Shown here one piece after another: positions 22,526 to 44,660 of a DNA stretch of 64,000 nt. Below the pieces are notes generated by a model. The model did no database searches and had not been told where the DNA came from. It saw only the letters and a list, made by a program, of their open reading frames with translations. Positions within the stretch are counted from its first letter, which is position 1. Every line of letters begins with the position of its first letter. Source of the DNA: an uncultured Actinomycetes bacterium (GTDB lineage: Bacteria; Actinomycetota; Actinomycetes; Nanopelagicales; Nanopelagicaceae); the NCBI GenBank assembly GCA_903838295.1, contig CAILXX010000007.1:489-64488 (forward strand), read 5' to 3'. The position numbers and the translations under genes are program-made.

Positions 22526-23596
22526 CTATAAATTCGAGCTTAAACCAAGCTTTTCTGCCATCCAATCTGCAGTAAAATAACGATGTTCGTTGGGAACATT
22601 GGCACATCCGTGATTGCCACGTTCTAGCATTAGCAATTCGCTATTACCCTTCATGATCTCGTGCATTTTGACCGCTTCTTGCCACGGAATCAATCGATCC
22701 ATCTTGCCGCCGACGATCAAAGTAGGACACTTAATCATTTCGAGGCGACCTTCGTTGGACAAAGTGAGAGCATGTTGTTCTGCATCCGCATCGTCTTTTG
22801 AAAATGATCGAACCGTAAACGTTTCTCTACTTAATGCAGGTAGGTCTTTCCACAATTTTCCAAAGTTGTAAGGTCCGCAGAGCGAGACGCAGGCCTTGAT
22901 ACGTGGATCTCCTGATGCAAAACGAGGTGCATAGTAACCACCAAGACTTACGCCCCAGACTGCAATTTTCTCGTTATTGATATCTGCGCGACTGATTAAG
23001 TAATCGACGATCGCGCGACCCGGGATTTCCCAATCAGCACGAATTGGTAGGTCGTATTCGGCTTCGCCTTGACCTGGGCCATCGACGCTAAAAGTCGCCA
23101 TACCCCGTTCTAAAAATAAGTTTTCGGTCGGATTAAATTCTTCTTTTGTCGAGTCTAAACCGGGAACCAGAATCACAACGGGGTACGGACCTTCTCCGTG
23201 CGGCTTGCGTAAGATGCCAACCATTTTTGCGCCTTCAAATGGGATCTCTATGCGTTCGCCAGGAAACTCGATGTACTTGATTGCAATTTCACGACAGCGG
23301 ACGGCATTGAAATGCGCGACCTTCATCTCTTCGTAATGACGAACGAAGACAAATTTGGCGAAATGATAAAAGGCAGATGCCGTGCTGTAATGCGCACCGG
23401 CTGATTTGTAGTGCTTTTTGGCTAGGGCTTCCTCGCCCATTTGCTCGTATTGTGCCCCGCCCTTAGAAAAGGCTGCACACCAGTCATCCCACGATTCCAA
23501 CCCCTGGGTCGTACGTTCGAAGTCCACAACCGAGACGCCATTTGATGTAAAACGAGGCGCCCAATGGGCCTTGGCTGAAGCTACATATTCGTCCAT
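22526..23596 (-). CDS. Alpha/beta hydrolase, 2,6-dihydroxypseudooxynicotine (DHPON)-hydrolase-like, paralog 1
   Basis: N-terminal helical cap HWAPRFTSNGVSVVDFERTT...YHFAKFVFV, then PGLDSTKEEF and the nucleophile elbow GVSLGGYYA. I prefer the ATG at 23596 (GAAAGG 6 nt upstream) to the listed TTG at 23614. Confidence 0.8.
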   Translation of the reverse strand: MDEYVASAKAHWAPRFTSNGVSVVDFERTTQGLESWDDWCAAFSKGGAQYEQMGEEALAKKHYKSAGAHYSTASAFYHFAKFVFVRHYEEMKVAHFNAVRCREIAIKYIEFPGERIEIPFEGAKMVGILRKPHGEGPYPVVILVPGLDSTKEEFNPTENLFLERGMATFSVDGPGQGEAEYDLPIRADWEIPGRAIVDYLISRADINNEKIAVWGVSLGGYYAPRFASGDPRIKACVSLCGPYNFGKLWKDLPALSRETFTVRSFSKDDADAEQHALTLSNEGRLEMIKCPTLIVGGKMDRLIPWQEAVKMHEIMKGNSELLMLERGNHGCANVPNEHRYFTADWMAEKLGLSSNL

Positions 23597-23609
23597 ATGG
23601 GGCCTTTCT

Positions 23610-23623
23610 TGCAATCGATTGCG
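23610..23623. promoter_or_regulatory. LacI-type operator candidate, site 1 (TGCAATCGATTGCG)
   Basis: 14-bp near-palindrome with a central CG, directly abutting the RBS of the minus-strand hydrolase gene. One of five related sites. Confidence 0.6.
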
Positions 23624-23700
23624 GATAGAGGGAATTTAACGGACGGCAAGCCAAAGGGGAAGACCTATCCAGCAGGCAAATACCCTGTTACGTTCCCGCA

Positions 23701-24588
23701 ATGGCTCGAATTGGCTTTTTAGGACTCGGTGATATGGGTCAAGTGATCATTCCGCGCTTGATGGCAGCCGGCCACGAAGTAACCGGATGGAATCGCACTC
23801 CTGGCAAAGATGCAGACCTGAAGAAATTGGGAATGCTGATCGGTGGATCCCCGGCAGATATTGCACACACAAGTGATTTCATATTTTCGATCGTTACAAA
23901 TGGTGAAGCGGTTCGAGAAATTTCGCTTGGCAAAGATGGAGTGATTCACGGAATATCCGACCAAGCTGTTTATTTAGACATGAGCACCATAGAGCCAGAA
24001 GTTAGTAGAGAAGTACATCATGCATTTAAAGCGGTAGGAAAGATCATGGTGGATGCACCAATATCTGGAAGCCCGGTGACTATTGCACAAGGCAAAGCAT
24101 CGCTGATGATCGGTGGTGATCCAGAAGTTTTCCCAAAGGTGGAGAAGGTCTTACTTGATATTGGAGCCAAGGCAACGTACATCGGTACTAGCGGACTAGC
24201 CACACAAGCAAAACTTTCCATTAACTCGCTATTGATGATCGAAGTAATTGCGTTTGGCGAAGCCGTTGCGCTTGCAGAAAAAGGTGGTGTAGATAGAGCA
24301 ATAATGGTCAATGCAATTCTCAATAGTGTTGCGGCTTCACCCGTACTTGGCTACCGTGGACCATTTATTCTTAAAGGCAATATGCCTGATAAACCCTTAG
24401 CGGATGTTCGAGTACAGCAAAAGGATATGTCACTTGTTTTAGAACAGGGACGTAGATTAGCTATGGCTTTGCCAATCGCTGCATCGGCTAATGACATGAT
24501 GAATGTCTGCCGCGGAATGGGAATCGGTCACAAAGATTTTGTCGTCGCACACGAAGCGTATTTGCGCATGGGAGGAATCACCGAATGA
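23701..24588 (+). CDS. NAD(P)-dependent oxidoreductase, 3-hydroxyisobutyrate / tartronate-semialdehyde reductase family
   Basis: Rossmann motif IGFLGLGDMG, MVDAPISGSP and a helical C-terminal domain. TACGTT-N6-ATG lies upstream (leaderless type). Confidence 0.85.
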   Translation: MARIGFLGLGDMGQVIIPRLMAAGHEVTGWNRTPGKDADLKKLGMLIGGSPADIAHTSDFIFSIVTNGEAVREISLGKDGVIHGISDQAVYLDMSTIEPEVSREVHHAFKAVGKIMVDAPISGSPVTIAQGKASLMIGGDPEVFPKVEKVLLDIGAKATYIGTSGLATQAKLSINSLLMIEVIAFGEAVALAEKGGVDRAIMVNAILNSVAASPVLGYRGPFILKGNMPDKPLADVRVQQKDMSLVLEQGRRLAMALPIAASANDMMNVCRGMGIGHKDFVVAHEAYLRMGGITE

Positions 24589-24998
24589 AGCCAGATCTAT
24601 ATGTAACTAATTTAAAAGATGTCCCGGTAGTCGAAGGCCTGCGCCGAGATGAAGGGTGGGTCAATATGCAGGTCCAGTTTGCGATAGATAAAGCAAAGGC
24701 GGGATCTGACAATTTGTTGGTGGGTTGGACGGTAATGCCACCTGGAGCCATGCACGATCGCCATCGTCACTCTAATTGCGAAGAGTTTTGGATAGTGGTT
24801 GAAGGCGACGGCATTATGTACACGAATGACGGCGAACGACCAGCGCACAAGGGGGATTTTGTATTGATCCCACGTGGCCACTGGCATGGGTTCAAGAACA
24901 CATCTAATCACGATGCGGTTTTGGCTTGGGGTTGGAGCGGTGCCGGATCACTCGAAGATTCTGGATACGAAGCGGACCAAGACAATCACCACCGATAA
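24585..24998 (+). CDS. Cupin-domain protein
   Basis: Metal motif context HDRHRHSNCEEFWIVVEG ... HWHGF. 4-nt overlap with the upstream gene. Confidence 0.75.
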   Translation: MKPDLYVTNLKDVPVVEGLRRDEGWVNMQVQFAIDKAKAGSDNLLVGWTVMPPGAMHDRHRHSNCEEFWIVVEGDGIMYTNDGERPAHKGDFVLIPRGHWHGFKNTSNHDAVLAWGWSGAGSLEDSGYEADQDNHHR

Positions 24999-25689
24999 TT
25001 GGCGTAAGGATCCTCGACTTACAGCAGGGTATGCAGCGTTAAAGACAAAATTAATTTTTGATCAAGCTGCTCGCAATAAGCAGGTTGGATGGAAATTAGG
25101 ATTTGGATCCCCGACAGGATTGGCCAACCTAAAACTCGGAGCACCTTTGGCTGGGTACCTTTTAGCTGAACGTGCGTTAACCAATAACGCCCATGTGGAC
25201 ATTAAGGATTGGGTAAAGCCAGTCGGTGAAGCAGAGATCGTGGTTTATTTTGATCGCGATGTCAGACCAGGATCATCGCAGGATCTTGTTCTGCAAGCCA
25301 TTTGTGCCATAGGACCCGCAATCGAGTTGGCAGATTTAGAATTTATTCCCGACGATCCGACAAAAATATTGGGTACGGATATATTTCAGAAACATTACAT
25401 ATTAGGTGATCGCGATGATTCACGTCGGGGTGGAGTAATCGATGGATTAATCGCGCGGATCACCATGCCCGATGGTTCTGAGAAGGTCGTCACAGAACTT
25501 GAAGAGTTGATCGGCAAACTTCCAGAGATAGTCACGCATTGTGCAGACGTTGTCGGTGATTTTTCTGGTGGTATCAAGAAAGGCGAATTTATTTTGATTG
25601 GTTCGATTGTGCCGCCAATTGCTTTAACCGCTGGTGGGCTTTTTAGATATTCGTTGGGTGATTATTTGGCCTTGGAAGTGAATTTTTAA
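24913..25689 (+). CDS. 2-oxopent-4-enoate hydratase / 4-oxalocrotonate decarboxylase-like (MhpD family, FAH fold)
   Basis: GWKLGFGSPTG...GAPLAGYL matches the G-x-K-x-G-x-T/S hydratase N-terminal signature. The start is ambiguous (GTG 24874, ATG 24886, ATG 24913 or GTG 24940) and every option overlaps the cupin gene. Confidence 0.6.
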   Translation: MRFWLGVGAVPDHSKILDTKRTKTITTDNWRKDPRLTAGYAALKTKLIFDQAARNKQVGWKLGFGSPTGLANLKLGAPLAGYLLAERALTNNAHVDIKDWVKPVGEAEIVVYFDRDVRPGSSQDLVLQAICAIGPAIELADLEFIPDDPTKILGTDIFQKHYILGDRDDSRRGGVIDGLIARITMPDGSEKVVTELEELIGKLPEIVTHCADVVGDFSGGIKKGEFILIGSIVPPIALTAGGLFRYSLGDYLALEVNF

Positions 25690-25698
25690 CTAATACTG

Positions 25699-25726: not shown

Positions 25727-25729
25727 TAC

Positions 25730-25743
25730 TGCAAACGATTGCA
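25730..25743. promoter_or_regulatory. LacI-type operator candidate, site 2 (TGCAAACGATTGCA)
   Basis: 14-bp palindrome (one central asymmetry) placed over the predicted +1 of the 25699/25721 promoter. Confidence 0.65.
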
Positions 25744-25762
25744 TAGTCTGGAGCAGATAATC

Positions 25763-27496
25763 TTGGAGATAAACCATGCTCATGGCGGTGCGCTGCTTAC
25801 GTCATTATTGATCGAGCACGATGTCGAATATGTATTTGGTTTACCAGGCGGTCAGACTTATGCCTTGTACGACGGGATCGATCATCGCTCAGAAATTAAG
25901 CATGTATTAGTCCGCGACGAACGCACCGGTGTTTATGCAGCAGACGGTTATGCCCGTGCCACTGGAAAGGTGGGGGTATGTGACGCTACCGTCGGACCAG
26001 GTGCCGCAAATCTTCCCGCAGGTCTAGGCGAAGCGCTAGGTGCATCAATTCCGATTGTTGCTTTGGTCAGCGCATTGCCGGCAAATTTAACTTTGCATCA
26101 ATATCGCTCTGCGGCTTCACAAGCGATGGATCAAGTCAATTTATTAGCACCGGTATCAAAGTGGTACGCCACCGTACCTAGCCTGCAAGCCATGCCAGCT
26201 TTAGTTAGACAGGCTTTTCAGCAAGCCACAACTGGGCGTCCTGGCCCAACCGTATTGTTCTTGCCGCAAGATATTTTAGATTCGAAATTACCAGACGAGA
26301 TGCTCCACCTATTAGAAGCGACTACAGAACGTTCTCGGTTTGGACAATTTCCTGCATTTAGGACGGCGCCAGATGTCGAGGATATTGCTGCAGCTGCAAA
26401 AATATTTGGCACAGCTAAGAAGCCAATTATTGTTGCTGGTGGCGGTGCACTGATATCTGGCGCGATCAAAGAAATTACCGATTTTGCAGATGCGCAGTCG
26501 TGTGCGGTTGCAACAACCTTGTCCGGTAAAGGTGTCATCGCAGAGAACCATTCATTGGCTGTCGGAGTTGTTGGGCAAATGGGAACCCCGGCTGCAGTAG
26601 CGGCGCTTGATGCTGCCGATGTGGTGCTGTTTGTGGGAACAAAGGCAGGTAGTGGTCCAACATTTGGCTGGAGTCGCCCACGTCCTGATCAAAAAATTAT
26701 TCAGATTGATATTGATCCTGCAGAAATTGGTCGTTCATTTGCAAAAGTGACCGGAGTCTTTGCAGATGCTCGCAGTGGAATGCGTTCACTTGCTAGTGCG
26801 GTAGGCACCAATCTACGCCCAGAGTGGAAGTCAGAAGTTGCGAAAATAAAAGAAGATTGGGCTACCGCACGTCACGCCGAACGAACAAGTGAGGCCAAGC
26901 CAATTTTGCCTCAGCGGGTACTTGGCGAATTGCAATCGCTGTTGCGTGAAGATGATCTGATTGTTTGTGACGCAAGTCTGTCTAGTGGCTGGGCTGGTGT
27001 TTATTACGAGCAAAATCTGCCGGGCAAGAAAGTCTTCATGCCTCGTGGTCTTGCCGGTCTTGGATATTCGGTTCCAGCTGCCATTGGAGTTGCGATTGCA
27101 AATCCGGGAAAACGAACCATTGTTCTTACCGGTGATGGCGCTTTGGGCTATTCAATCGGCGAATTCGCAACGATCCTAGAACTTAAATTGCCGATCACGG
27201 TTGTTGTTTTAAATAATGCACAGCTGGGATGGATCCGTTGGTACAGCCACCTCAACTTTGGTACATCCGATCATGGTACTGACTTTGCTGATATTGATTT
27301 TAGTGCGGTAGCAAAGGGCTTTGGCTTCGAAGCAGAACGTGTGGTTGATCCATCACTGTTAGCCATGTCGCTAAAGCGGCTCTTAGAAAGTGAGAAACCA
27401 AGCTTGATCGATATTATTACCGAGACTTGGACGACCCCGGTGTCAGGCCACAAAATTGCACTCGCCAAGAAACAATCAACCGGATACGGAGGGTAA
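25763..27496 (+). CDS. Thiamine-diphosphate-dependent enzyme, acetolactate-synthase-like
   Basis: N-terminal Pyr domain VFGLPGGQTYALYDG and the C-terminal TPP motif GDGALGYSIGEFATI...VLNNAQLGW. TTG at 25763 (GGAG 9 nt upstream) is preferred to the listed TTG at 25739. Confidence 0.85.
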   Translation: MEINHAHGGALLTSLLIEHDVEYVFGLPGGQTYALYDGIDHRSEIKHVLVRDERTGVYAADGYARATGKVGVCDATVGPGAANLPAGLGEALGASIPIVALVSALPANLTLHQYRSAASQAMDQVNLLAPVSKWYATVPSLQAMPALVRQAFQQATTGRPGPTVLFLPQDILDSKLPDEMLHLLEATTERSRFGQFPAFRTAPDVEDIAAAAKIFGTAKKPIIVAGGGALISGAIKEITDFADAQSCAVATTLSGKGVIAENHSLAVGVVGQMGTPAAVAALDAADVVLFVGTKAGSGPTFGWSRPRPDQKIIQIDIDPAEIGRSFAKVTGVFADARSGMRSLASAVGTNLRPEWKSEVAKIKEDWATARHAERTSEAKPILPQRVLGELQSLLREDDLIVCDASLSSGWAGVYYEQNLPGKKVFMPRGLAGLGYSVPAAIGVAIANPGKRTIVLTGDGALGYSIGEFATILELKLPITVVVLNNAQLGWIRWYSHLNFGTSDHGTDFADIDFSAVAKGFGFEAERVVDPSLLAMSLKRLLESEKPSLIDIITETWTTPVSGHKIALAKKQSTGYGG

Positions 27497-27501
27497 CAAC
27501 C

Positions 27502-28272
27502 ATGCCACGCCACCCAGAACGCCAACTAGAAAGAATTTCACAACCTGTTGCAGCAGAGTTGATGAAGAAGAGTGGGGTAGCAGTCGTAGTTGCTGGAAGC
27601 ATCGAGCAACACGGAAGCCACTTGCCCCTAGGAACAGATTTGTTTGCTGCCTTATCAATCGGAGAGCGCGTTGCAGAAAGATTAAACACAATTGTTGTGA
27701 CACTTGGTTCAGTTGGCATCGCGCACTATCACGCTGGCTGGGCCGGCTCTTTAACTCTTAAGCCAGAGACAATGATTAGCGTCTTTGTGGATATCTGCGA
27801 AGGGCTCAAAGAAGCCGGAGCAAACCGAATTTTGGTGGTCAACTGGCATGAAGGAAATTCTGCAACGATGCGGATTGCAGCTGACCGCGCGCAAATGGTT
27901 CATGGAGTACAAGTAGTTGTTGGTGAGTCACATATCATCACAAATTCATTGCATCCAGAGGAGATGGAATTTACACATTCTGGCGCCATGGAGACATCTG
28001 CAGTTCTTGCATATGATGCATCATTAGTGCATTTGGATCGCTTGGCGGCGCCGAGTGATCGCGAAGCGGGGGATGAAGCACACGAGCTTTTCCGCCGCCG
28101 TGATGTGTATCCAATCATGCGCGATTTTCATGATGTCGCCCCCACGGGTTGGTATGGACATCCAGAAACAGCCACGGTTGCAAGATCAGAAGAGATTGCC
28201 GAAGAAGTTGCGGATCACATTGTTCGTAGGGCAAAAGAAGTCTGGGATGCACTAGGAAAGGTTTCTCACTGA
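27502..28272 (+). CDS. Creatininase-family (creatinine amidohydrolase fold) metal hydrolase
   Basis: GSIEQHGSHLPLGTD, NWHEGN and HSGAMETS match PF02633 motifs. ATG at 27502 with GGAGGG upstream. The listed 27427 start would overlap the previous gene by 70 nt. Confidence 0.85.
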   Translation: MPRHPERQLERISQPVAAELMKKSGVAVVVAGSIEQHGSHLPLGTDLFAALSIGERVAERLNTIVVTLGSVGIAHYHAGWAGSLTLKPETMISVFVDICEGLKEAGANRILVVNWHEGNSATMRIAADRAQMVHGVQVVVGESHIITNSLHPEEMEFTHSGAMETSAVLAYDASLVHLDRLAAPSDREAGDEAHELFRRRDVYPIMRDFHDVAPTGWYGHPETATVARSEEIAEEVADHIVRRAKEVWDALGKVSH

Positions 28273-29330
28273 TGACTGAGCAAAAAACAATGCGGGCCGC
28301 TGTTTTAGCGGACTTTGGTTCACTATCGGTTACGGATGTTGCGATTCCAGAACTTGAATACGGCGAAGTCTTGTGTCGAGTCAACGCATGTGGGATGTGC
28401 GGTACCGATCTAAAGATTGTTAACGGTGGATTTAAGGGAACCTGGCCACCAAGCATGCCTTTCATCTTGGGACACGAATGGTCTGGAACCATTGTAAAAA
28501 TGGGTGCTGGTACCGAAAAGAGTGGACTTGCGGTCGGAGATCGAGTCGTCGCAGAGAACCATGCTGGTTGTTCCGCTTGCGTGATGTGCCGACAAGGTCG
28601 TTATAACTTATGCGATCGTGTCAAAGATCCTGGTTTCAAGTTGTACGGTCACACAGCTCCTGGTGCATTGGCAGAATTTGCATCACGTCCAGCAGTAGCG
28701 GTTCATAAAATTCCTGACTCTGTTTCTGATCTTGCGGGTGCCCTTGTTAACCAAGCAGCCCTAACAGTCCATGCCGGGCGCCGTGCTGATATTCGTCCTG
28801 GTTCTACCGTCGCAGTTTATGGCCCAGGTCTCTTGGGACTTTTGATGTTGCAAGTTGCACGCGCTGCTGGCGCAACACAGGTAATTGTTGTGGGACGTGG
28901 CGCTCGGTTGGAGACCGCGCTAGAACTTGGCTGCGATGCTGTCGTAGATTATGAAAAATCTGATCCGGTCGCAGAGATCCGTCGCATGACGGGTGGACGT
29001 GGAGTTGATTACGTTTTTGACTGCTCTGGCAATCCTGCAGTTGTCGAGCAGCTTTTTAGATCCACGCGCCGTGGCGGCAAGATCGCGATGTTGGGTTTGA
29101 CTGGCGGTCAGACCGCAACCCTGCCAATCGATCTATTGGCATTGGACGAGATTGACCTCCTGGGAGTTCGCTCAAGCCCCAATTGTTATCCAGCGACGAT
29201 TGCCCTGATCGCCTCCGGAGCCATCAAGACCGAACCGCTGACGACTTTTACCTACGGTCTAGATCAGATAGACGAGGCCTTTGCGGCTCTGGAATCCCGC
29301 CAGGTCATTCGCCCGATCGTGCTCCTCTAA
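28272..29330 (+). CDS. Zinc-dependent alcohol/polyol dehydrogenase (MDR family)
   Basis: CGMCGTDLK, GHEWSG and the structural-zinc cluster CSACVMCRQGRYNLC, plus the Rossmann motif VYGPGLLG. 1-nt overlap (TGATG) with the upstream gene. Confidence 0.85.
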   Translation: MTEQKTMRAAVLADFGSLSVTDVAIPELEYGEVLCRVNACGMCGTDLKIVNGGFKGTWPPSMPFILGHEWSGTIVKMGAGTEKSGLAVGDRVVAENHAGCSACVMCRQGRYNLCDRVKDPGFKLYGHTAPGALAEFASRPAVAVHKIPDSVSDLAGALVNQAALTVHAGRRADIRPGSTVAVYGPGLLGLLMLQVARAAGATQVIVVGRGARLETALELGCDAVVDYEKSDPVAEIRRMTGGRGVDYVFDCSGNPAVVEQLFRSTRRGGKIAMLGLTGGQTATLPIDLLALDEIDLLGVRSSPNCYPATIALIASGAIKTEPLTTFTYGLDQIDEAFAALESRQVIRPIVLL

Positions 29331-29411: not shown

Positions 29412-29425
29412 TGCAAACGATTGCG
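29412..29425. promoter_or_regulatory. LacI-type operator candidate, site 3 (TGCAAACGATTGCG)
   Basis: Same 14-mer family, immediately downstream of the -10 element and 44 nt upstream of the binding-protein ATG. Confidence 0.65.
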
Positions 29426-29468: not shown

Positions 29469-30725
29469 ATGCATAAATTAAGGCTTGGCAGTGTTGCCAA
29501 CCGACGTAAGGTTCAAATCGGCGCTGTACTTGGCGCTGCCGCTCTAGCAGTTACGGGACTTACAGTTCCTAATGCAATTGCAGCTGGTAAGCCGATCACG
29601 ATCGGTATCTCTGTATCACTTTCTGGCGACTTCTCCGGTGACGGTGTCGCTACCCAACAAGGTTACAAAATTTGGGCTGCATGGCAGAACGCGCACGGCG
29701 GAATTCTTGGACGTCCAGTTGTCCTGAAGTTCTTGTCTGATGCCTCAAGCCCTACGCAAGTCGTAACTAACTACCAAAAATTTATGACAGCAGACAAAGT
29801 TGACTTTGTCCTCGGACCTTACTCAACTAAGTTGACCAAGCCAGCATCAAATACTGCAAATCGTTATCACTATGTAATGCTTGAAGGAATTGGCGGCGGA
29901 CCATCCGTCTTCTCACGTGGCTTGAAGAACGTCTTCGATGTATCTGCATCGGCTACGTATCAGTTAGTTACTTATGCAAAGTGGTTGGCCGCAACACAGA
30001 AGCCACAGCCAATTGCATACGCAACAATGGATGATCCATTCATTCAACCAATGGTGGATTATGCTCGTGCTTATCTTGATAAGAAGGGCTTCACTGAAGC
30101 CGTTTACAAGGTATACCCAGCAGAGACAACAGACTTCTCACCTATCGCTTCGGCTGTAGCTGCTACAGGCGCGAAGATTGCAATCTTGGGAACTATGCCA
30201 CCTGATGGTTATGCGATGGTTCAGAATTTCATTCAGGCTAAGTACAACCCAGAGCAATTGATTATGGCTTCAGGACCTGACCAAGGTGCTGACTTCACCA
30301 AGAGCGTGGGAATTACAAACACTGAAGGATTGATGGTTCCAAATACTTGGATTCCAACATCTAACTACCCAGGTAACAAAGATATGGTTGCTGCGTATAT
30401 CAAGGCTTACGGCGGAGATATCAATGCAATCAATGCTGACGTTCCTGAAGCATTCGCAGCAGGTCAAGTTCTAGCCGAAGCTGTTAACAAAATTGGATCT
30501 ACTGACAACAAGAAGTTGCAGGCCTATCTACACTCTGGTGCTTCATTCACCAGTGTTCAGGGTCCGGTTCAATTCGCAGCAGATGGTCAAAACTCTGGTG
30601 CCGCTCCTTATGTCTTCCAATGGCAGAAGGGCGTTTACCTTCCAGTATTGCCACTTGGCGGTCCTGACAAGGTTTCACCAATCGAGACAATGCGTCCCGA
30701 TTGGGGTACCACACCAGGTATGTAA
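29469..30725 (+). CDS. ABC transporter substrate-binding protein, LivJ/type-1 PBP family
   Basis: Signal peptide RRKVQIGAVLGAAALAVTGLTVPNAIAAGKP, then ITIGISVSLSGDFSGDG typical of Leu/Ile/Val-type binding proteins. GGGAGG precedes the ATG at 29469. Confidence 0.85.
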   Translation: MHKLRLGSVANRRKVQIGAVLGAAALAVTGLTVPNAIAAGKPITIGISVSLSGDFSGDGVATQQGYKIWAAWQNAHGGILGRPVVLKFLSDASSPTQVVTNYQKFMTADKVDFVLGPYSTKLTKPASNTANRYHYVMLEGIGGGPSVFSRGLKNVFDVSASATYQLVTYAKWLAATQKPQPIAYATMDDPFIQPMVDYARAYLDKKGFTEAVYKVYPAETTDFSPIASAVAATGAKIAILGTMPPDGYAMVQNFIQAKYNPEQLIMASGPDQGADFTKSVGITNTEGLMVPNTWIPTSNYPGNKDMVAAYIKAYGGDINAINADVPEAFAAGQVLAEAVNKIGSTDNKKLQAYLHSGASFTSVQGPVQFAADGQNSGAAPYVFQWQKGVYLPVLPLGGPDKVSPIETMRPDWGTTPGM

Positions 30726-30737
30726 CAAATAATTGCC

Positions 30738-30781
30738 AGAAGGAAGGCAGCCACTTGGGTGACTGCCTTCCTTCTTTTAAT
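30738..30781 (+). terminator. Intra-operon hairpin with T/A-rich tail (attenuating terminator after the binding-protein gene)
   Basis: agaaggaaggcagccac-ttgg-gtgactgccttccttct, a 17-bp stem with one mismatch, followed by tttaataaaaa. Confidence 0.6.
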
Positions 30782-30813
30782 AAAAACACTTCAACACTTG
30801 GAGGCTTAATAGC

Positions 30814-37447: not shown

Positions 37448-39012
37448 GAAAGAATCCCTGCTGTATCTACACCCAAATCCTTCAACATAACGATGGCAGC
37501 ATTGCGACCAGGTGCGCCAGTAATTGATCCACCCGGATGTGTTGTTCCACCAGTCTGATACAGACCAGGGATTGGCATACGGTGAGAAGCCCAACCAGGA
37601 ACCGGACGATTAGGTCCACTAAATGTTGGACCGCGATCGCCACCGTGGAAAGCACCGTTGATCATATGGCGATTGGTTGCCCAGATATCTGCTGGAGATT
37701 TTACGTAACGAGAAATGATTACATCATCGGTAAATGAAGGCATAAATCGGCGCATATACGCGAGTTGACGGTTGACGACATCGTGCTTAACAACGTCCCA
37801 ACCAGGAGAACCGGCAGGTAAGCCAAAACTTTGTGCGCTTAAGAATTTAACTGTATGTCCACCATTAGGTGCCCTCCCTGGATCGACCAGGGTTGGGGTC
37901 GCAACAAGAATCCACGGAACGGTATCGATATGGCGCCCCAGCTTTACATCTAGGCTCAACTGCAGCATATCTTCTGGCCAACCAACGGCGCCAGCAGATA
38001 CTGCGCTGCGTGGACCAAGTTCTGTATCGAACACCGGCGGGCTCTTAGTAGTGAAGTAAGCAGCAAATCCAGATATGCCAACGTTGTATGTTTCTACGCC
38101 GAACTTGAAATCTTCTGGCCACAATTCTTTTGGTGCCATATCAATCAAATGCTTGACGTGTATCGTCGATAGCACGGCTTTCTTTGCGCGGTATTCATCG
38201 CCATCCTCGGTTTTGATTCCAACGCAACGACCGTCATCAATGATTAACTCTGAAACAACTTTGTCACAAATAATTTTTCCACCGTGGGCTTCTAAGTAAG
38301 CGACTAGTCCGGCTGTCAATCGTCCCGATCCGCCTTCTGGGATTGACCAGCTTCGCGCTTGGCGTGCAAATATCGAATACGCCATCATTCCGGTTCCAGG
38401 TTGGTCGTACCAAACAAATGTTTGGAATGCCATCCAGAGCATAAAGGCCTGGATATGCCGATCTTCAAATTCGAGTTTGATAATGTCCCACGCACTCATA
38501 GCACGACGACGTGCCCAGATTTTTCCATCAGGATGTTCTGCTAAACGTTGATCCAGTGATGGTCCAAATCCAATCGGAGTAAAATTACCTGCTGTGAAAA
38601 TACTTTTTACAGTGTCGTATTCTTTGGACATTCGGCGGTAAGCAGCAGCGTCCTTTTTGCTGAAGCGAGAGATCTCTTCAATTGTCTTTTCAAAATCTAA
38701 GTACATCGTAAATTGTTTACCGTCGGGAAATGCAACATGTGCGACTGGATCCGGCTCAAAATATTTAAGGCCATATTGTGAGATAAGGCCGAGTTCGTCT
38801 TGTAGTAAGAGTGGGTTGGACCGGATCAGTGTGTGGCCCGTTGAACAGGTATCAATGTGGAAGCCAGGGTCCAACAACTCTTCGGTTGCGGCGCCGCCGC
38901 CCGGTATAGAGCGAGCATCCAAAAGGACCGTGCTAAATCCAGCTTTAGCTAAATAGCAGGCCGTGATTAAACTGTTATGGCCGGCGCCCGCGACGACGAT
39001 ATCTGCTTCCAT
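37444..39012 (-). CDS. FAD-dependent oxidoreductase, phytoene-desaturase (CrtI)-like family
   Basis: Dinucleotide-binding N-terminus DIVVAGAGHNSLITACYLAKAGFSTVLLDARSIPGGG, ~520 aa. AAGGAG RBS. The stop overlaps the convergent DapA-like gene. Confidence 0.8.
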   Translation of the reverse strand: MEADIVVAGAGHNSLITACYLAKAGFSTVLLDARSIPGGGAATEELLDPGFHIDTCSTGHTLIRSNPLLLQDELGLISQYGLKYFEPDPVAHVAFPDGKQFTMYLDFEKTIEEISRFSKKDAAAYRRMSKEYDTVKSIFTAGNFTPIGFGPSLDQRLAEHPDGKIWARRRAMSAWDIIKLEFEDRHIQAFMLWMAFQTFVWYDQPGTGMMAYSIFARQARSWSIPEGGSGRLTAGLVAYLEAHGGKIICDKVVSELIIDDGRCVGIKTEDGDEYRAKKAVLSTIHVKHLIDMAPKELWPEDFKFGVETYNVGISGFAAYFTTKSPPVFDTELGPRSAVSAGAVGWPEDMLQLSLDVKLGRHIDTVPWILVATPTLVDPGRAPNGGHTVKFLSAQSFGLPAGSPGWDVVKHDVVNRQLAYMRRFMPSFTDDVIISRYVKSPADIWATNRHMINGAFHGGDRGPTFSGPNRPVPGWASHRMPIPGLYQTGGTTHPGGSITGAPGRNAAIVMLKDLGVDTAGILS

Positions 39013-39042: not shown

Positions 39043-39056
39043 AGCAAACGATTGCA
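39043..39056. promoter_or_regulatory. LacI-type operator candidate, site 4 (AGCAAACGATTGCA)
   Basis: Sits in the 86-bp divergent gap between 39012(-) and 39099(+). One outer-position mismatch to the consensus. Confidence 0.55.
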
Positions 39057-39098: not shown

Positions 39099-40070
39099 AT
39101 GAAGGCGATAGTTATTAACGAGTACGGCGGTCCAGAGTGTCTTGAATATGCCGACGCCCCCACCCCAGAGCCGGGCCCGAACGAAGTCCTTATCAAGTCC
39201 AAGTTCATCGGAGTCAATTTTACCGATATCCGAAATCGCGTTGGCGATGGTGACGGCGTGGTCCCGATGATTATTGGTGTAGAAGCCAGTGGCCAAATAG
39301 TGAAACTTGGACCTGGATGCACAAAATTTAAAGTGGGGGATTTTGTTACCTCTTTTACCCGCGGACATGCATATGCCGAATACGTCACCGGGTTAGAGAA
39401 ATTTACCGAGAAGATCTCGGAAGAATTTGCGCAGAAGCCAGAATCTGCCGGAATCTTGGTGACAGTTCCGTTGGCGCTCAACGTAGTAGAACGCGCGGGA
39501 CGGATTCGTCCGGGAGAGACCGTACTACTTCATGCAGCGTCGGGTGGTGTGGGTTCGATTATTGGGCAGCTAGTAAAGAAGATCGAAGACACCAGACTTT
39601 TTGGAACAATTAGTGATTCTTCAAAATCAGGGTATGCGAAGAAAAATGGATATGACGAATTAATGAGTTATGAAGAATTCGCAGATCGCGCAAAGGAATT
39701 AACTAACGGCAAAGGAGTAGATGCAATCTTGGATCCGGTTGGCGGAGAGGTTCAGAAGCGCTCATTAGAAATCGTTGCACCTTTTGGTCGGTTGGTTTCT
39801 TACAGCAATATTTCGCGCGCGCCTATGGATTTGCCATCAGCTTTGTGGTTTAGGAGTAAGTGCATTGGTTTTGTGGGAATTTCAAATGGTTCACTATCTG
39901 AACACAGCCCAGCAATATTGGCAGAGACCTTAAGACGTTCGGTCCAGCTTGTGGAAGATGGAACTATCCGGATTGATGTGACCGAAGTTCTCCCGCTCGC
40001 CGAAGCCTCCAAAGCACATGCAATATTTGAGAGCCGTGCTGCGACCGGTAAATTCATTTTGGCAGTCTAA
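39099..40070 (+). CDS. NADPH:quinone oxidoreductase-like MDR (zeta-crystallin type)
   Basis: MKAIVINEYGGPECLEYADAPTPEPGPNEVLIKSKFIGVNFTD, the Rossmann motif LHAASGGVGS, and no catalytic-zinc Cys/His pattern. GGAGG RBS. Confidence 0.85.
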   Translation: MKAIVINEYGGPECLEYADAPTPEPGPNEVLIKSKFIGVNFTDIRNRVGDGDGVVPMIIGVEASGQIVKLGPGCTKFKVGDFVTSFTRGHAYAEYVTGLEKFTEKISEEFAQKPESAGILVTVPLALNVVERAGRIRPGETVLLHAASGGVGSIIGQLVKKIEDTRLFGTISDSSKSGYAKKNGYDELMSYEEFADRAKELTNGKGVDAILDPVGGEVQKRSLEIVAPFGRLVSYSNISRAPMDLPSALWFRSKCIGFVGISNGSLSEHSPAILAETLRRSVQLVEDGTIRIDVTEVLPLAEASKAHAIFESRAATGKFILAV

Positions 40071-40460
40071 ATGCGCCGAAAAATATTGGTTTACGGTCTC
40101 TTTAGCCTCATAATTCTTTCGATAGTAGGAACAGCAGTAATGCGATTATCGCTGACTCCTAAAGGAAGATCTACAACAACAGGTGTCCAATTTTTTGTGG
40201 GACCGGTTGTAAAGACGATTTACAGCAGTCTGCAGGTAAAGGTTGCAGTTAAGGACCACAAGATTGTTGATGTCATCCCCATTACATTGCCAAATTCTGA
40301 TACCCGATCAATAACTCTTGCTCATGTTTCAGTGCCGATTATGCGCAACGAAGCAATTACAAAAAATACTGGTGATATACATTCGGTTTCTGGGGCAAGT
40401 GTGACAAGTAGTGCTTACAGACAATCATTGCAAGGCGCGCTAGCCAAGGCAGGTTTATGA
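40071..40460 (+). CDS. Membrane-anchored FMN-binding-domain protein
   Basis: N-terminal TM segment ILVYGLFSLIILSIVGTAV. The C-terminal VSGASVTSSAYRQSLQGAL matches the FMN_bind SGAT/S-x-T/S motif seen in NqrC/RnfG-type domains. Confidence 0.65.
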   Translation: MRRKILVYGLFSLIILSIVGTAVMRLSLTPKGRSTTTGVQFFVGPVVKTIYSSLQVKVAVKDHKIVDVIPITLPNSDTRSITLAHVSVPIMRNEAITKNTGDIHSVSGASVTSSAYRQSLQGALAKAGL

Positions 40461-41863
40461 CAAAAGTTGGCAAGTCTGCAGATCGCTGGGAAGTAGGACC
40501 CGTTGCTTTCTTGATCGCAGGATTGCTCTTCATGGAGAACTTTGACGCTTCAATAATTCCAACTGCTGCACCGACTATTGCCAGACAATTTCATATTCTC
40601 TCTGGTCAAATGGGTATTTGCGTTACGGCTTACCTGATGACGATGGTGGTCCTAATTCCGGTAACCGCGTGGTTTGTAGAAAAATGGGGAGCACGACCAG
40701 TTCTCTTCACAAGTATTGTTTTATTTACCGGCGCATCTTTGCTCTGTGCCATTAGTAGTAATTTGGCCGAACTCACTTGTATGCGGGTATTACAAGGTGC
40801 CGGTGGCGCAATGATGGTGCCGGTAGGGCGACTGGTGGTTTTGCGTGCAACGGATAAAGCTCATGTGATTCGTGCAATTTCCTATCTGACCTGGCCAGCG
40901 CTTACGGCACCAATTATCGCGCCAGCTGTATCTGGATTGATTATTGCGCATTTCTCTTGGCCTTGGATTTTTGCGATCAATTTGCCAATCGGAATCGTAG
41001 AACTGTTGCTGGCGATCAAGATGATTCCCAAAACTGCGCACCTTGGGGCAGGAAAACTTGATTGGCTTGGATTTATCGGTGCTTCCGTGGCCTTGGGATG
41101 TTTGGTTTTTGGTTCTGCAGCGCTAGGAAATCCCCGTGTTAATTCCCTGGAAACCATCGTACTTTTGGGGATCGGTATTGGCGCTGGGGTCCCAACGGTG
41201 CGCCATATGCTGAACTCCCCCATGCCATTAGTCAGTTTTGTGGCGCTACGGGTTCGAACATTCAGAGCCGCAACAACAGGCGGGGCAGCTTTTAGAGTCG
41301 GCATCAACGCGGTTCCATTTTTATTGCCATTGATGTTTCAAGATAAATTTGGCTGGTCGCCGGTACGTGCAGGTAGCGTTGTGCTTTCGTTATTTGTCGG
41401 TAATTTTCTATTCAAACCGTTTACGACACCCTTGTTAAAAAAGCTACCTTTTCGTTCCGTATTGATGCTCTCCACAGGTTTGTCGGCGGTGAGTGTTCTG
41501 CTGATTGCCTTGCTACAAGCTTCTACTCCATTGCTTGTAGTGTGGATCCTCTTATTATTTAGTGGGTCGGTTCGATCATTGGGTTACACCTGCTACAACA
41601 CGATTACATTTGCAGATATTGATCAATCAGGCATGCAGCAAGCGAACAGTCTTGCGACCATGATTCAAGTTACTACTCAGGTATTTTCGGTTGTAGTAGC
41701 GGTGTTGGGAATGAAACTAGGCACCGTCCTATTTGGAGCGGTTAATCAATTTAACTTCGCATTTGTAGTACTTGCCTGCCTAGTATTTTGTGCCTTAATA
41801 GATTCGGTCCGTTTGCCACATAAAGCCGGGGATGCAATTCGAGTAAAAAGGAGTGATGTGTAA
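40457..41863 (+). CDS. MFS transporter (DHA2/14-TM-like)
   Basis: 468-aa polytopic protein with the MFS loop motif MRVLQGAGGAMMVPVGR. 4-nt overlap with the FMN-binding gene. Confidence 0.85.
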   Translation: MTKVGKSADRWEVGPVAFLIAGLLFMENFDASIIPTAAPTIARQFHILSGQMGICVTAYLMTMVVLIPVTAWFVEKWGARPVLFTSIVLFTGASLLCAISSNLAELTCMRVLQGAGGAMMVPVGRLVVLRATDKAHVIRAISYLTWPALTAPIIAPAVSGLIIAHFSWPWIFAINLPIGIVELLLAIKMIPKTAHLGAGKLDWLGFIGASVALGCLVFGSAALGNPRVNSLETIVLLGIGIGAGVPTVRHMLNSPMPLVSFVALRVRTFRAATTGGAAFRVGINAVPFLLPLMFQDKFGWSPVRAGSVVLSLFVGNFLFKPFTTPLLKKLPFRSVLMLSTGLSAVSVLLIALLQASTPLLVVWILLLFSGSVRSLGYTCYNTITFADIDQSGMQQANSLATMIQVTTQVFSVVVAVLGMKLGTVLFGAVNQFNFAFVVLACLVFCALIDSVRLPHKAGDAIRVKRSDV

Positions 41864-43602
41864 TGGAACCTTTAGCTGGCGCCTTGAAATCAGCGCAACG
41901 TGATGGGATGTTTATCGATTGGGATGTCCCCATAACCATGGATGATGGTTTGGTATTGCGTGCAGATGTATACCGTCCACTGAATAGCGATCGTTTGCCT
42001 GTGATAGCGAGTTATGGACCGTATGCAAAGGGTCTGACCTTTGCAGCTGGATATCCCCGTCAATGGGAACGTTTGAATGCGCGATACCCCAAGGATTTAG
42101 AGGGAAGTACTGGCAAATATGCGGCATGGGAATTAGTCGATCCCGAACATTGGACCGCATTTGGTTATGCATGTGTCCGAGTCGATTCACGTGGTGCAGG
42201 ACGTTCACCAGGTCAGGTGGATGTGTGGAGCAAGCGCGAAGCAAAAGATTATTACGATTGTATTGAATGGATCGCGGCGCAAGATTGGTCCAACGGGAAA
42301 GTTGGGTTGGCTGGAATCTCTTACTACGCAAAGAACCAGTGGCAAGTCGCTGAACTAAACCCACCTCACCTGGCTGCAATATGTCCATGGGAAGGTGCTA
42401 ATGATTACTACCGAGATATGTCACATCACGGCGGTATCCATAATGCATTCTTACCCGATTGGTATCAGCGGTTTACAACAATTCAGAATGGTTTGGGATC
42501 TAGAGGTTTTAAGAATCCAGAGAGTGGATTATGGGCCTGCGGTGATACCGATTTAACAGATGATGAGTTATATGCAAATCGCTGTGATTTAGCCAAGCAA
42601 TTAGTAGAACATCCCTTTGATGATGATTGGCATTTTGCACATTCAAGCCAGCCAGAAAAAATTAAAGTACCGACGCTTTCAGCTGCGAACTGGGGTGGTC
42701 TTGGCAATCACCAACGGGGAAACCTTTATGCCTGGGCTTCGACTAGTTCTGATAAGAAATGGTTAGAGATACATAATGGGACCCACTGGTCCGGTTTTTA
42801 TACCGAATATGGTCGCAGCCTGCAGAAGCGCTTCTTTGATTATTTTCTTAAAGGTGAGGGAGATTGGCAAGATCAACCACTAGTCTCACTCAACATACGC
42901 CAAGTCGATGGAACGGTTACATTACGTCGAGAAAACGAGTGGCCATTGGCGCGGACAGAGTGGACACGGAAATATTTGAATCTCGATACTAATTCGATTG
43001 ACGCTAGTGCTTCTATTGATTCAAAATCCATTACCTATAGCGCGATGGGTGAAGGCGTTACCTTCTTCACGACCCCACTTACCGAAGCCACAGAAATTAC
43101 TGGTCCAGTGAGCGCCAAGGTTTGGGTGTCTTCATCTACAACCGACGCAGATTTATTTTTGACCTTGCGAGCATTTGGCGACGATGGTAACGAAATATTA
43201 TTCGAAGGCGCAAACGATCCGAAGACTCCGATGTCTCAAGGCTGGTTGCGTGCATCGCATAGGGCTCTTGATGTTGTTCAATCAAAACCTTGGGCGCCGT
43301 TCCATCCACATAAGGTCGCAGAGCCAATAATACCGGGCCAGATTTATGAATTAGATATAGAGATCTGGGCTACCTGTTTGGTGTTGCCAGCCGGATATCG
43401 ACTGGCCTTAACCGTAAAAGGATGCGATTTTGATCATGGGCTAGAGCCGGTAGAGATGGGCGGTCGAATCATGAAGGGCAGTGGTCCATTTAGACACGAA
43501 CATCCAGAAGACCGACCAGCCGCAATATTTGAAAATCAAGTCACCCTATATACCGGTGATCAATACCCATCGTCCATCTTGTTGCCGATTATTCCTGCAT
43601 AA
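41863..43602 (+). CDS. CocE/NonD-family serine hydrolase (S15 X-Pro dipeptidyl-peptidase fold)
   Basis: VRVDSRGAGRSPG, the nucleophile elbow GISYYAKNQW, ~580 aa with a C-terminal beta-rich domain. 1-nt overlap (TAATG) with the MFS gene. Confidence 0.85.
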   Translation: MEPLAGALKSAQRDGMFIDWDVPITMDDGLVLRADVYRPLNSDRLPVIASYGPYAKGLTFAAGYPRQWERLNARYPKDLEGSTGKYAAWELVDPEHWTAFGYACVRVDSRGAGRSPGQVDVWSKREAKDYYDCIEWIAAQDWSNGKVGLAGISYYAKNQWQVAELNPPHLAAICPWEGANDYYRDMSHHGGIHNAFLPDWYQRFTTIQNGLGSRGFKNPESGLWACGDTDLTDDELYANRCDLAKQLVEHPFDDDWHFAHSSQPEKIKVPTLSAANWGGLGNHQRGNLYAWASTSSDKKWLEIHNGTHWSGFYTEYGRSLQKRFFDYFLKGEGDWQDQPLVSLNIRQVDGTVTLRRENEWPLARTEWTRKYLNLDTNSIDASASIDSKSITYSAMGEGVTFFTTPLTEATEITGPVSAKVWVSSSTTDADLFLTLRAFGDDGNEILFEGANDPKTPMSQGWLRASHRALDVVQSKPWAPFHPHKVAEPIIPGQIYELDIEIWATCLVLPAGYRLALTVKGCDFDHGLEPVEMGGRIMKGSGPFRHEHPEDRPAAIFENQVTLYTGDQYPSSILLPIIPA

Positions 43603-43607
43603 TTAAA

Positions 43608-44660
43608 TTAGAGGTGATCGACCATCCAGTCACCGGCTAGTGGGTGATACAGGTACGGATAGTTATTACAGACGTGATTGCCGTCATCAATCATAACTAG
43701 CTTGGCATTCTTCGCCTCTGCCACGACTCTTTCTGCGTGCTGATACGGAACCAAGCGATCTTTCTTACCAAAGATAACAAGTAATGGCTGCGTAAGATTC
43801 TGCAAGCACCCTTCGAGGGTGATGCTGTCAGCGACTTTTCTTGCCTCATCTTCAGTTGATGCGCCAGAATATTGATAAAAGGCGGCGCGACTAATCGGTG
43901 GGCGTGCGTCGTATCGACTTCCGGTGTCATACGAACCACCAACCGTGACTGCTACCTTAATACGCGAATCATGCGCGGCGCTTCTGGCAGCGTAATAGCC
44001 GCCCATACTGACGCCTACTACTCCAAGTCGTTCTGCATCGATATCTTTACGAGTTAAAAGTTCATCGATAGCTACTTTGATCGCGCTCTCATAATTTGGT
44101 CTCAGTGGAAAGTAAAAACCAGATTCGCCTTGACCGGGTCCATCGAATGAGAATGTTGCAAGACCGCGAGTGATAAATACATTCTCCCAATTAAAGAATT
44201 CTTCTTTGGTCGAATCAAGTCCTGGTAGCAAGATCACCACTGGTGGATGGCTTACACCTGCTGGCTTTCGCAAGTTACCAACTAACTGGTGGCCTTCGAA
44301 TGGAATTTCTACTCTTTCAGCGCTTGAATCCAAATTTTTATGGGCACGCAGTAAAGCATCGATTGACTTCTCTGTTGCCATTTTATGTTTTGCCATATCT
44401 AAAACCCATACAAATTTTGCGAAGTGATAACTCAGGGCAGCGCGATTCCAGGCATTCCCGGCGCTTATTTTGTGTCCTGCCACTTCTGCTTCACTCGCTA
44501 GTCCCGCGTGCATATCACCGTTAGCTACCCATGCATCTAGCCACTGAGACCAAGTTTCAAGGCTATTGGTTACACGCGCAAAATCATTGGCATCGACGCC
44601 TTGAGTTATAAATCTTGGTGCCCAATGATCTATGGCTGATTGAATATCGGAATCTCTCAT
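43608..44660 (-). CDS. Alpha/beta hydrolase, DHPON-hydrolase-like, paralog 3
   Basis: HWAPRFITQGVDANDFARVT...YHFAKFVWV, PGLDSTKEEF and the nucleophile elbow GVSMGGYYA. TAGCAT-N6-ATG on the minus strand in the 34-nt gap after the LacI gene. Confidence 0.8.
   Translation of the reverse strand: MRDSDIQSAIDHWAPRFITQGVDANDFARVTNSLETWSQWLDAWVANGDMHAGLASEAEVAGHKISAGNAWNRAALSYHFAKFVWVLDMAKHKMATEKSIDALLRAHKNLDSSAERVEIPFEGHQLVGNLRKPAGVSHPPVVILLPGLDSTKEEFFNWENVFITRGLATFSFDGPGQGESGFYFPLRPNYESAIKVAIDELLTRKDIDAERLGVVGVSMGGYYAARSAAHDSRIKVAVTVGGSYDTGSRYDARPPISRAAFYQYSGASTEDEARKVADSITLEGCLQNLTQPLLVIFGKKDRLVPYQHAERVVAEAKNAKLVMIDDGNHVCNNYPYLYHPLAGDWMVDHL

Follow-up and report, generated by a model that had tools for sequence, protein, structure and literature searches.

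The branch of the alpha/beta hydrolases that holds 2,6-dihydroxypseudooxynicotine (DHPON) hydrolase, AntI, and Ayg1 has few characterized members, all of which carry out an unusual hydrolysis of C-C bonds, and more than 1,000 sequence clusters, almost none of which has an assigned substrate. The window analyzed here, a 64,000-nucleotide stretch from an uncultured Nanopelagicaceae bacterium (positions 489 to 64,488 of contig CAILXX010000007.1, assembly GCA_903838295.1), carries three genes of this branch, H1, H2, and H3, which represent new, uncharacterized subfamilies of a known kind of enzyme, set in a conserved, operator-defined catabolic supercluster. Their biochemically assigned close relatives, namely, DHPON hydrolase from the nicotine pathway of Paenarthrobacter nicotinovorans pAO1 (EC 3.7.1.19; structure 2jbw), AntI of Photorhabdus (6hxa/8qbh), and the fungal enzymes Ayg1p and Wdyg1p (8qd1/8qd7), all cleave a C-C bond next to an enolizable ketone (PMC6122326, PMC6601290, PMC11165489). 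AntI, Ayg1p, and Wdyg1p are biosynthetic retro-Claisen hydrolases that trim polyketides, either bound to acyl carrier protein or in the form of naphthopyrones, whereas H1 to H3 belong to a catabolic island that includes transporters and is probably under repressor control. FrsA (3mve/4i4c), the namesake of Pfam family PF06500, belongs to the same Pfam family as H1 to H3, shares their cap and core fold (TM score of ~0.8), and has a GLDS loop.

We read H1, H2, and H3 as three ancient and differentiated hydrolases of the DHPON hydrolase/AntI/Ayg1 branch that belong to one LacI regulon and would carry out parallel cleavage steps, probably of the retro-Claisen type, and we give this reading as a whole an even chance of being right. 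The locus sets three diverged subfamilies side by side under one repressor, and its conserved operator marks out the complete regulon in numerous genomes.

Three paralogs of the DHPON hydrolase branch

H1 (22526..23596, minus strand; 356 amino acids), H2 (35411..36475, plus strand; 354 amino acids), and H3 (43608..44660, minus strand; 350 amino acids) are open at the coordinates given in an earlier note on this DNA, and a six-frame search of the whole 1.46-Mb genome recovered exactly these three family copies and none further. The chance that three randomly placed genes fall within 22 kb is p ~7e-4. Pairwise identity is 42% between H1 and H3 (E = 5e-97), 37% between H2 and H3, and 34% between H1 and H2, the range of diverged paralogs, of which H2 is the most divergent, and recent near-identical duplicates are thereby ruled out. 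A longer alternative start for H1, TTG at 23614, lies inside a predicted operator (operator 1, below), and ATG at 23596 is therefore preferred. The start of H2 overlaps the stop of an upstream acyl-CoA dehydrogenase-like gene, and a 34-nt gap separates H3 from lacI, which precedes it on the same strand.

Most of the motifs that the earlier note had listed for the three proteins are present: PGLDSTKEEF in H1 and H3 and PGADSTKEEL in H2, along with the nucleophile elbows GVSLGGYYA (H1), GISYGGLFS (H2), and GVSMGGYYA (H3). The N-terminal HWAPRF, which had been ascribed to all three, is matched exactly by H1 and H3 but not by H2, which has RFTWRI there, and the motif spacing had been given one residue off.

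Profile and structure searches bear out the proposed resemblance to DHPON hydrolase and to the FrsA/DUF1100 group. Among Pfam families, H1, H2, and H3 all score best against PF06500 (FrsA-like), at 55.7, 40.2, and 50.3 bits, respectively, against a cutoff of 22, and these searches placed none of them in an unrelated esterase family. The best solved-structure match of each protein is 2jbw, near full length (E = 3.7e-41, 5.9e-37, and 4e-44 for H1, H2, and H3), with alignments over residues 35 to 350 for H1 and 9 to 348 for H3, and the next matches are AntI, Ayg1-type enzymes, SMU_737, and FrsA. An AlphaFold2 model of H2 (mean pLDDT of 94.8) has five N-terminal helices followed by a beta/alpha core, and a Foldseek search with this model returned 2jbw first (TM score of 0.88 and root mean square deviation of 2.3 Å over 352 columns), then AntI (0.81), FrsA (~0.81), and Ayg1p (0.80). 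DHPON hydrolase is like H1 to H3 in length and in its cap and core build; AntI is 25 to 30% identical to them. FrsA, at ~415 amino acids, has a longer N-terminal part than H1 to H3, and only about half of its profile is matched. Scores against the FrsA equivalog model NF003460 were 63.5, 53.4, and 55.6 bits for H1, H2, and H3 against a cutoff of 477, with H1 and H2 covering only profile positions ~96 to 299 of 414 and the weak match of H3 reaching position 402. Furthermore, Vibrio FrsA has Arg at the nucleophile position, unlike the Ser of H1 to H3. Profiles of the meta-cleavage product C-C hydrolases (BphD/MhpC/HsaD) gave no membership for any of the three, with only a trace match of H3 to HsaD (20.7 bits against a cutoff of 400).

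The family comprises 1,039 representatives (clusters at 50% identity) at E ≤ 1e-30 in a profile search. In a maximum-likelihood tree of 163 sequences rooted with AntI, the copies fall into three distinct and well-supported clades, as the alignment and phylogeny suggested in the earlier note had been meant to examine: the H1 clade (support of 100), the H2 clade (support of 100; stem length of 0.59), and the H3 clade (support of 97 to 100). The H1 and H3 clades lie within a common larger group. DHPON hydrolase sits in a separate group of 42 rows, where its nearest representative (P0339) is 46% identical to 2jbw, and none of H1 to H3 falls in the clade of the pAO1 enzyme. Judged from their sequences, then, H1 to H3 are three separate, old subfamilies and not orthologs of DHPON hydrolase. 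Orthologs of H1, 50 to 81% identical, were found in Mycolicibacterium, Blastococcus, Planotetraspora, Actinomadura, Nocardioides, Dormibacterota, Burkholderiales, and Myxococcota; those of H2 are 59 to 79% identical, and those of H3, 58 to 73% identical, come from Actinomycetota, Chloroflexota, and Deinococcales. Since each copy is far closer to its orthologs than the paralogs are to one another, the triplication appears to be ancient. The database names of these homologs contradict each other ("DHPON hydrolase," "pimeloyl-ACP methyl ester carboxylesterase," "dienelactone hydrolase," and "acylaminoacyl peptidase") and are homology labels only.

We aligned 68, 117, and 120 members of the H1, H2, and H3 clades with 2jbw and AntI, using the residue numbers of H1, which are also those of native DHPON hydrolase. 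The Ser-Asp-His triad is intact in all three copies: Ser217/Asp300/His329 in H1, numbered identically in DHPON hydrolase, and, in their own numbering, Ser225/Asp304/His333 in H2 and Ser218/Asp301/His329 in H3. It is 99 to 100% conserved within each clade and aligns with the triads of 2jbw and AntI. Also invariant across the three clades are the cap residue Arg15, Gly146, Asp148, Ser149, Lys151, Glu152, Glu153, Arg164, the DGPGQG motif at 172 to 177, and Asn333. DHPON hydrolase and H1 to H3 have in common STKEE, DGPGQG, and the Arg of the cap. The loop that precedes STKEE reads GLDS in H1 and H3 and GADS in H2, with Gly, Asp, and Ser invariant. AntI and Ayg1p have the same GLDS loop with its tautomerizing Asp, the triad, and the N-terminal cap, and the loop of Wdyg1p reads GLDG (PMC6601290, PMC11165489). 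Asp148 aligns with AntI Asp175 and, via AntI, corresponds to Afyg1p Asp188, both of which are the proposed acid/base of keto-enol tautomerization; a backbone NH near this Asp forms the oxyanion hole in these relatives (PMC6601290, PMC11165489). DHPON hydrolase differs in that a Glu (native 148), in a G-L-x-S loop, is aligned with the tautomerizing Asp of AntI and Ayg1. A further residue of DHPON hydrolase, named "Glu248" in a review (PMC6122326), was set aside: native position 248 of 2jbw is Trp by count, and we suspect a numbering slip.

Positions conserved to at least 90% within a clade but differing between clades are concentrated in the cap and near the catalytic residues. Listed as H1/H2/H3, they are 12 (W/F/W), 14 (P/W/P), 53 (L/R/L), 69 (H/A/A), 106 (L/A/H), 157 (T/L/W), 180 (E/S/G), 221 (Y/L/Y), 260 (F/Q/F), 328 (N/V/N), 330 (G/I/V), and 338 (H/A/Y). 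Position 330, the residue after the catalytic His, matches the pocket-lining residues Val356 of AntI and Met381 of Afyg1p, and the nucleophile Ser is followed by L in H1, Y in H2, and M in H3 of the window. Given an intact triad and loop and clade-specific residues near the active site, the copies are predicted to be catalytically competent, with pockets that differ, and by these predictions they are specialized, not redundant.

The predicted operator and its conserved modules

The gene upstream of H3, lacI (44695..45714, minus strand), encodes an RbsR/CytR/UriR-like repressor (Pfam LacI and Peripla_BP_1/3; its best NCBIfam matches are all below cutoffs). A 12-bp palindrome, GCAAWCGWTTGC, occurs at exactly five sites in the genome, all of them intergenic and all in the island; the reversed control gave 0 sites, and shuffled sequence gave a mean of 1.05 matches with one mismatch allowed. 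Among 108 loci fetched from other genomes (designated here by L and a number), 66 hold the GCAAWCGWTTGC 12-mer at homologous positions, and these span Actinomycetota, Dormibacterota, and Betaproteobacteria. The operator is often found immediately upstream of H1 orthologs, at a distance of 25 to 45 nt in L025 to L030, L046, and L078, and L102 has it at the same four positions as the window, including counterparts of operator 2 at 1337-1348 (before the gene for a thiamine diphosphate [ThDP] enzyme), operator 3 at 5092-5103, and operator 4 at 13668-13679. The single regulon supposed in the earlier note thus gains support from a palindrome that is confined, genome-wide, to five intergenic sites of the island and is kept in homologous clusters of other phyla, the latter being strong comparative support. 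The LacI repressor likely regulates the island, including H1 to H3, through this predicted operator. With an operator conserved across phyla, the regulon could be rebuilt comparatively.

The five sites divide the island into units. Operator 1 (GCAATCGATTGC; 23611..23622) precedes the start codon of H1 by 14 nt and faces a divergent unit on the plus strand (23701..25689) that encodes an HIBADH-like dehydrogenase, a cupin, and an MhpD/DmpE-like hydratase/decarboxylase-fold protein and is kept in L021, L068, and L099. Convergent on H1 from its other side are genes at 20123..22521 (plus strand) for an NMT1-like binding-protein homolog, an S9/DLH-like alpha/beta hydrolase, and a CMD-family protein, all with weak Pfam matches. 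Operator 2 (GCAAACGATTGC; 25731..25742) precedes genes for an acetolactate synthase-like ThDP enzyme, a creatininase-family hydrolase, and a Zn alcohol dehydrogenase (25763..29330, plus strand), which are contiguous, and 54 to 82% identical, in L018 and L101 to L103. Operator 3 (GCAAACGATTGC; 29413..29424) precedes a Liv-type ABC transporter (binding protein, two permeases, and two ATPases) and an acyl-CoA dehydrogenase-fold protein (29469..35411, plus strand), which lie upstream of H2 in the same order in L101 to L103; a DHDPS/KdgD/HpaI-family class I aldolase-like protein (36485..37447, plus strand) follows H2 directly, as is always so for H2 orthologs. A TTG start at 29397 would put operator 3 inside the coding region of the Liv-type binding-protein gene, and the ATG at 29469, which comes after GGAGG and leaves the operator upstream, is likely the start (gene at 29469-30725). 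Operator 4 (GCAAACGATTGC; 39044..39055) separates a CrtI/amine oxidase-fold FAD oxidoreductase (37444..39012, minus strand), found directly upstream of H3 orthologs in L019, L020, and L106, from a unit convergent on H3 (39099..43602, plus strand) that encodes a quinone oxidoreductase-like MDR protein, a small FMN_bind protein, a DHA2-type MFS transporter, and a CocE/NonD (S15) hydrolase. Operator 5 (GCAATCGATTGC; 45781..45792) lies between the lacI-H3 pair (minus strand) and genes for an HIBADH-like dehydrogenase (HIBADH2), a DddP/creatinase-like M24 protein, a VOC protein, and a fused E1 alpha-beta ThDP enzyme (45820..50737, plus strand), which elsewhere occur beside H1 orthologs.

The earlier note had each copy tied to a different module, and the modules themselves are kept in other genomes. 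A tblastn census over 80 loci holding H1 orthologs found the HIBADH2 dehydrogenase in 56, a LacI homolog in 53, Liv-type ABC genes in 39 to 46, the M24 protein (77 to 82% identical) in 45, the CrtI-fold FAD oxidoreductase in 31, the NMT1-like protein in 28, the CMD-family protein in 18, and the DLH-like hydrolase in 10. Three long contigs with H2 (L101 to L103) keep nearly the whole order of the window, from the ThDP enzyme, creatininase-family protein, and Zn alcohol dehydrogenase through the Liv-type transporter, acyl-CoA dehydrogenase-like protein, H2, and DHDPS-like protein to the FAD oxidoreductase (on the opposite strand) and the quinone oxidoreductase, with 54 to 87% identity to the window proteins for most genes and 43 to 63% for the FMN_bind protein. 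In L102 the acyl-CoA dehydrogenase-like gene is absent, and the order continues with FMN_bind, MFS, CocE/NonD, H3, and LacI. Orthologs of H3 have three settings: next to CocE/NonD (L004, L018, and L102); in units of a Liv-type transporter, EamA, Amidohydro_2, FAD oxidoreductase, and H3 with an M24 protein or a molybdenum hydroxylase; and in a unit of LacI, 2-hydroxyacid dehydrogenase, creatininase, Gfo/Idh/MocA, cupin, and H3 beside a UxaA-like dehydratase. The module of each hydrolase, together with the operator, is thus kept in other Actinomycetota, Dormibacterota, and Burkholderiales, and related clusters recur in many soil and water bacteria.

Modules are also shuffled; the HIBADH2-M24 pair, beside H3 in the window, is beside H1 elsewhere, and each module is found by itself, with its own transporter, in some genomes. 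Since modules occur alone elsewhere with their own transporters, parallel specialized routes are favored over three obligatory steps on one molecule. Of the two options left side by side in the earlier note, specialization for different substrates is therefore favored, and successive cleavages, if obligatory, are disfavored.

Several copies in one cluster are not peculiar to this window. A member of a fourth clade lies beside the H3 ortholog in L018 (8864-9958), an Acidimicrobiales contig (L107) holds three family members within 9 kb (including 10131-11201 and 16474-17529), and Burkholderiales have tandem pairs of the family hydrolase, with further paralogs in L092, L093, and L098.

Proposed retro-Claisen cleavage and its alternatives

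In the chemistry that we propose, the dehydrogenases of the island (the Zn alcohol dehydrogenase, the two HIBADH-like enzymes, the quinone oxidoreductase, and the FAD oxidoreductase) would create a carbonyl-activated bond, which each hydrolase would cleave via a covalent acyl-Ser intermediate, most likely by retro-Claisen C-C hydrolysis of a beta-dicarbonyl or enolizable acyl(-ring) intermediate. The three modules would process related but distinct substrates or branches in parallel, and what they release would be taken further by the ThDP enzymes, the DHDPS-type aldolase, and the dehydrogenases that resemble semialdehyde reductases. Judged from the context, the substrate may be a polyoxygenated compound, possibly N bearing and sugar or cyclitol derived, or an amino acid-like carboxylate. 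We consider retro-Claisen cleavage most likely because the characterized close relatives all perform it, and it is supported by neighbors rich in enzymes that make ketones or cleave next to them. The ketone-adjacent cleavers of the island are two ThDP enzymes, the DHDPS-type aldolase, and the creatininase-family protein, which is weakly IolN-like.

A related logic may be seen in the oxidative inositol route of the Thermotoga type, which Rodionova et al. reportedly described in 2013 and which is said to involve a Zn-dehydrogenase, IolM, and a diketo-inositol hydrolase, IolN. The Zn alcohol dehydrogenase of the island resembles IolM at 194 bits, the same score that it has for TDH; neither cutoff is reached, and that of IolM (450) is far higher. 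The creatininase-family protein weakly resembles IolN at 45 bits, likewise far from the cutoff of 245. What is common to the two systems would be the oxidation of a polyol to a beta-diketone followed by hydrolytic cleavage, an analogy of logic only. Clusters related to the island add Gfo/Idh/MocA and UxaA-like genes under LacI. The IolG, IolO, and UxaB/KdgK set, however, is absent from the island, and the Thermotoga route as described is without DHPON-type hydrolases.

A more specific proposal, which we think unlikely in its details, is that the island belongs to an undescribed, widespread catabolic system for polyoxygenated carbocyclic or enol-ketone natural products, with amino acid-type ABC uptake and a cascade of hydrolytic C-C cleavages under one LacI. 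Three diverged serine hydrolases of the retro-Claisen type, a diketone hydrolase with the creatininase fold, and the two ThDP enzymes would each open a different ketone-activated bond in such a cascade. Candidate substrates may be cyclitol or aminocyclitol derivatives or mycosporine-type cyclohexenones conjugated to amino acids.

Several observations weigh against retro-Claisen cleavage in parallel modules. The copies are only 29 to 33% identical to DHPON hydrolase, and the catalytic activity of all three clades is a prediction, as is the operon structure, which we infer from spacing and operators only. No NCBIfam equivalog cutoff was reached by any island gene scanned. The GLDS loop also occurs in Vibrio FrsA (as AGLDS), and FrsA proteins are not known to be anything but esterases; since FrsA has the loop too, it is no proof of C-C chemistry, and we dropped it as a discriminator between C-C hydrolases and esterases. 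The genomic context is mixed, with LacI, Gfo/Idh/MocA, UxaA-like, and KdgD/GarR-like proteins on a sugar-like side and molybdenum hydroxylase, amine oxidase-fold, succinate-semialdehyde dehydrogenase, M24, and creatininase-family proteins on an N-heterocycle-like side. Lastly, the CMD-family protein and alpha/beta hydrolase beside H1 resemble the PcaC/PcaD pair, a hint of enol-lactone (ester) hydrolysis.

This hint leads to a serious alternative, though one that we regard as doubtful: H1 to H3 could be carboxyl-ester or (enol-)lactone hydrolases that open lactone or ester intermediates or deesterify conjugates, in the manner of PcaD or dienelactone hydrolase. In fold and triad they are like ordinary esterases, the GLDS loop is shared with FrsA, and a CMD-family (PcaC-like) protein stands beside H1 and many of its orthologs. 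Related clusters also contain proteins of the Amidohydro_2 family, to which sugar lactonases belong. Secondary profile matches point the same way, as they include PcaD/PcaDC, BioH, DLH, UilS lactonase, and macrolide esterases, but these are all far below cutoffs, at 15 to 45 bits, and span the generic core only, and the nearest characterized relatives by both sequence and fold all cleave C-C bonds.

It is less probable still, and in our view improbable, that the copies have a role like that of DHPON hydrolase itself, which would be removal of an acyl side chain from a hydroxylated N-heteroaromatic ring (as in alkaloids or vitamins of the pyridine or pyridone type) after amine oxidase and hydroxylase steps. 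Neighbors of orthologs in other genomes do parallel the 6HLNO-Kdh-DHPONH-SsaDH logic of the nicotine pathway (PMC6122326). A CrtI/amine oxidase-fold flavoprotein adjoins H1 and H3 orthologs in larger genomes; an IorAB/Kdh-like molybdenum hydroxylase lies near H3 in L019 and near some H1 orthologs, with its large subunit in 12 scanned loci; L019 also has a BBE/FAD_binding_4 oxidase; and a succinate-semialdehyde-type aldehyde dehydrogenase is present in 14 loci. In the island, on the other hand, no molybdenum hydroxylase, ring-hydroxylating monooxygenase, or 2,6-dihydroxypyridine hydroxylase was found among the open reading frames, and the nicotine pathway partners Ndh, Kdh, and 6HLNO are likewise absent. 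Moreover, no copy falls within the DHPON hydrolase clade, the regulator is of the LacI type, and several partner genes are sugar acid-like.

Finally, redundant isozymes kept by chance after piecemeal assembly of the island, in an arrangement without pathway logic, might explain a common catalytic apparatus, one operator for all three genes, and the shuffling of modules between genomes, but this is very improbable given copies of 34 to 42% identity with clade-specific residues around the active site, clades that each retain their own neighbors across phyla, and a streamlined 1.46-Mb genome that is unlikely to retain three redundant genes.

To return to parallel retro-Claisen cleavage, orthologous clusters are found in the culturable strains Mycolicibacterium sp. 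P9-64, M. agri, and Blastococcus atacamensis and in Planotetraspora and Actinomadura species. With culturable carriers and a conserved operator, both the substrate and the chemistry should be reachable by ordinary experiments. Literature searches on further catabolic members of the family, on BbmA/CsmA, and on IolM/IolN returned nothing usable.

Partner proteins and genomic setting of the island

Searches with the partner proteins gave broad assignments. Across 23 island proteins, including H1 to H3, the sole curated NCBIfam cutoff reached was that of a broad CocE/NonD subfamily model, by the S15 hydrolase. Solved-structure searches of the partner proteins indicated no substrate: the FAD oxidoreductase matched phytoene desaturase only, the Liv-type binding protein matched Leu/Ile/Val-type proteins only, and the ThDP enzyme was nearest to BbmA and acetolactate synthases. 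The M24 protein matched prolidases, with DddP entries (E = 1e-14) as its only full-length matches.

The M24 protein (46761-48005), which is unusually conserved at 77 to 82% identity among distant Actinomycetota, contains FFDIIHSFNGYRTCYYRTF, in which a Cys lies 11 residues past the first metal-binding Asp, at the place of the second Asp of M24 peptidases. The protein encoded at 48539-50737 (732 amino acids) joins the E1 alpha and E1 beta parts of a ThDP dehydrogenase of the 2-oxoacid/acetoin type in a single chain, and no E2 or E3 partners for it were seen within the window. In related clusters the two parts are encoded by separate genes, and some of these clusters have E2 (L019; the family is present in 8 scanned loci). 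H2 and the gene for the acyl-CoA dehydrogenase-fold protein (34197-35411) are translationally coupled. We noticed neither a CoA ligase nor a CoA transferase in the island, and the substrate of this protein may not be a CoA compound, or the protein may rely on enzymes whose genes lie elsewhere.

The assembly that carries the window (1.46 Mb in 23 contigs; 99% complete; ~47% GC) comes from a streamlined freshwater actinobacterium, and the hydrolase copies are present in just 2 of 36 genomes of its genus. In two close relatives within the genus, G001 and G002, the block is absent from the site between an ABC exporter gene (14668-16629 in the window) and murT (50781), and the gap between these landmarks is ~3 kb, compared to 34 kb in the window. 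The block of ~31 to 34 kb is an accessory, acquired catabolic island in this genus. Neither a mobility gene or integrase nor a tRNA was seen at the island borders, and base composition showed no anomaly along the window (GC of 0.46 to 0.48 throughout). Orthologs of H2 were found in 0 of 400 sampled genomes of the class, which shows that H2 is rare within it. The island takes up ~2% of the genome, and spending this much of a small genome on it suggests that a particular dissolved organic compound of ecological relevance is involved.

Two further observations concern this setting. G001, the nearest relative in which the three hydrolases also occur, has its copies on contigs C40, C51, and C104, with the exporter-murT site empty on C90; either the island sits elsewhere in G001 or this metagenome-assembled genome is misbinned. 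Outside the island, a single 677-codon open reading frame of the window (4578-6611) encodes a complete thymidylate kinase (FIAFEGGEGSGKST...) joined with a membrane domain of the MFS-like kind.

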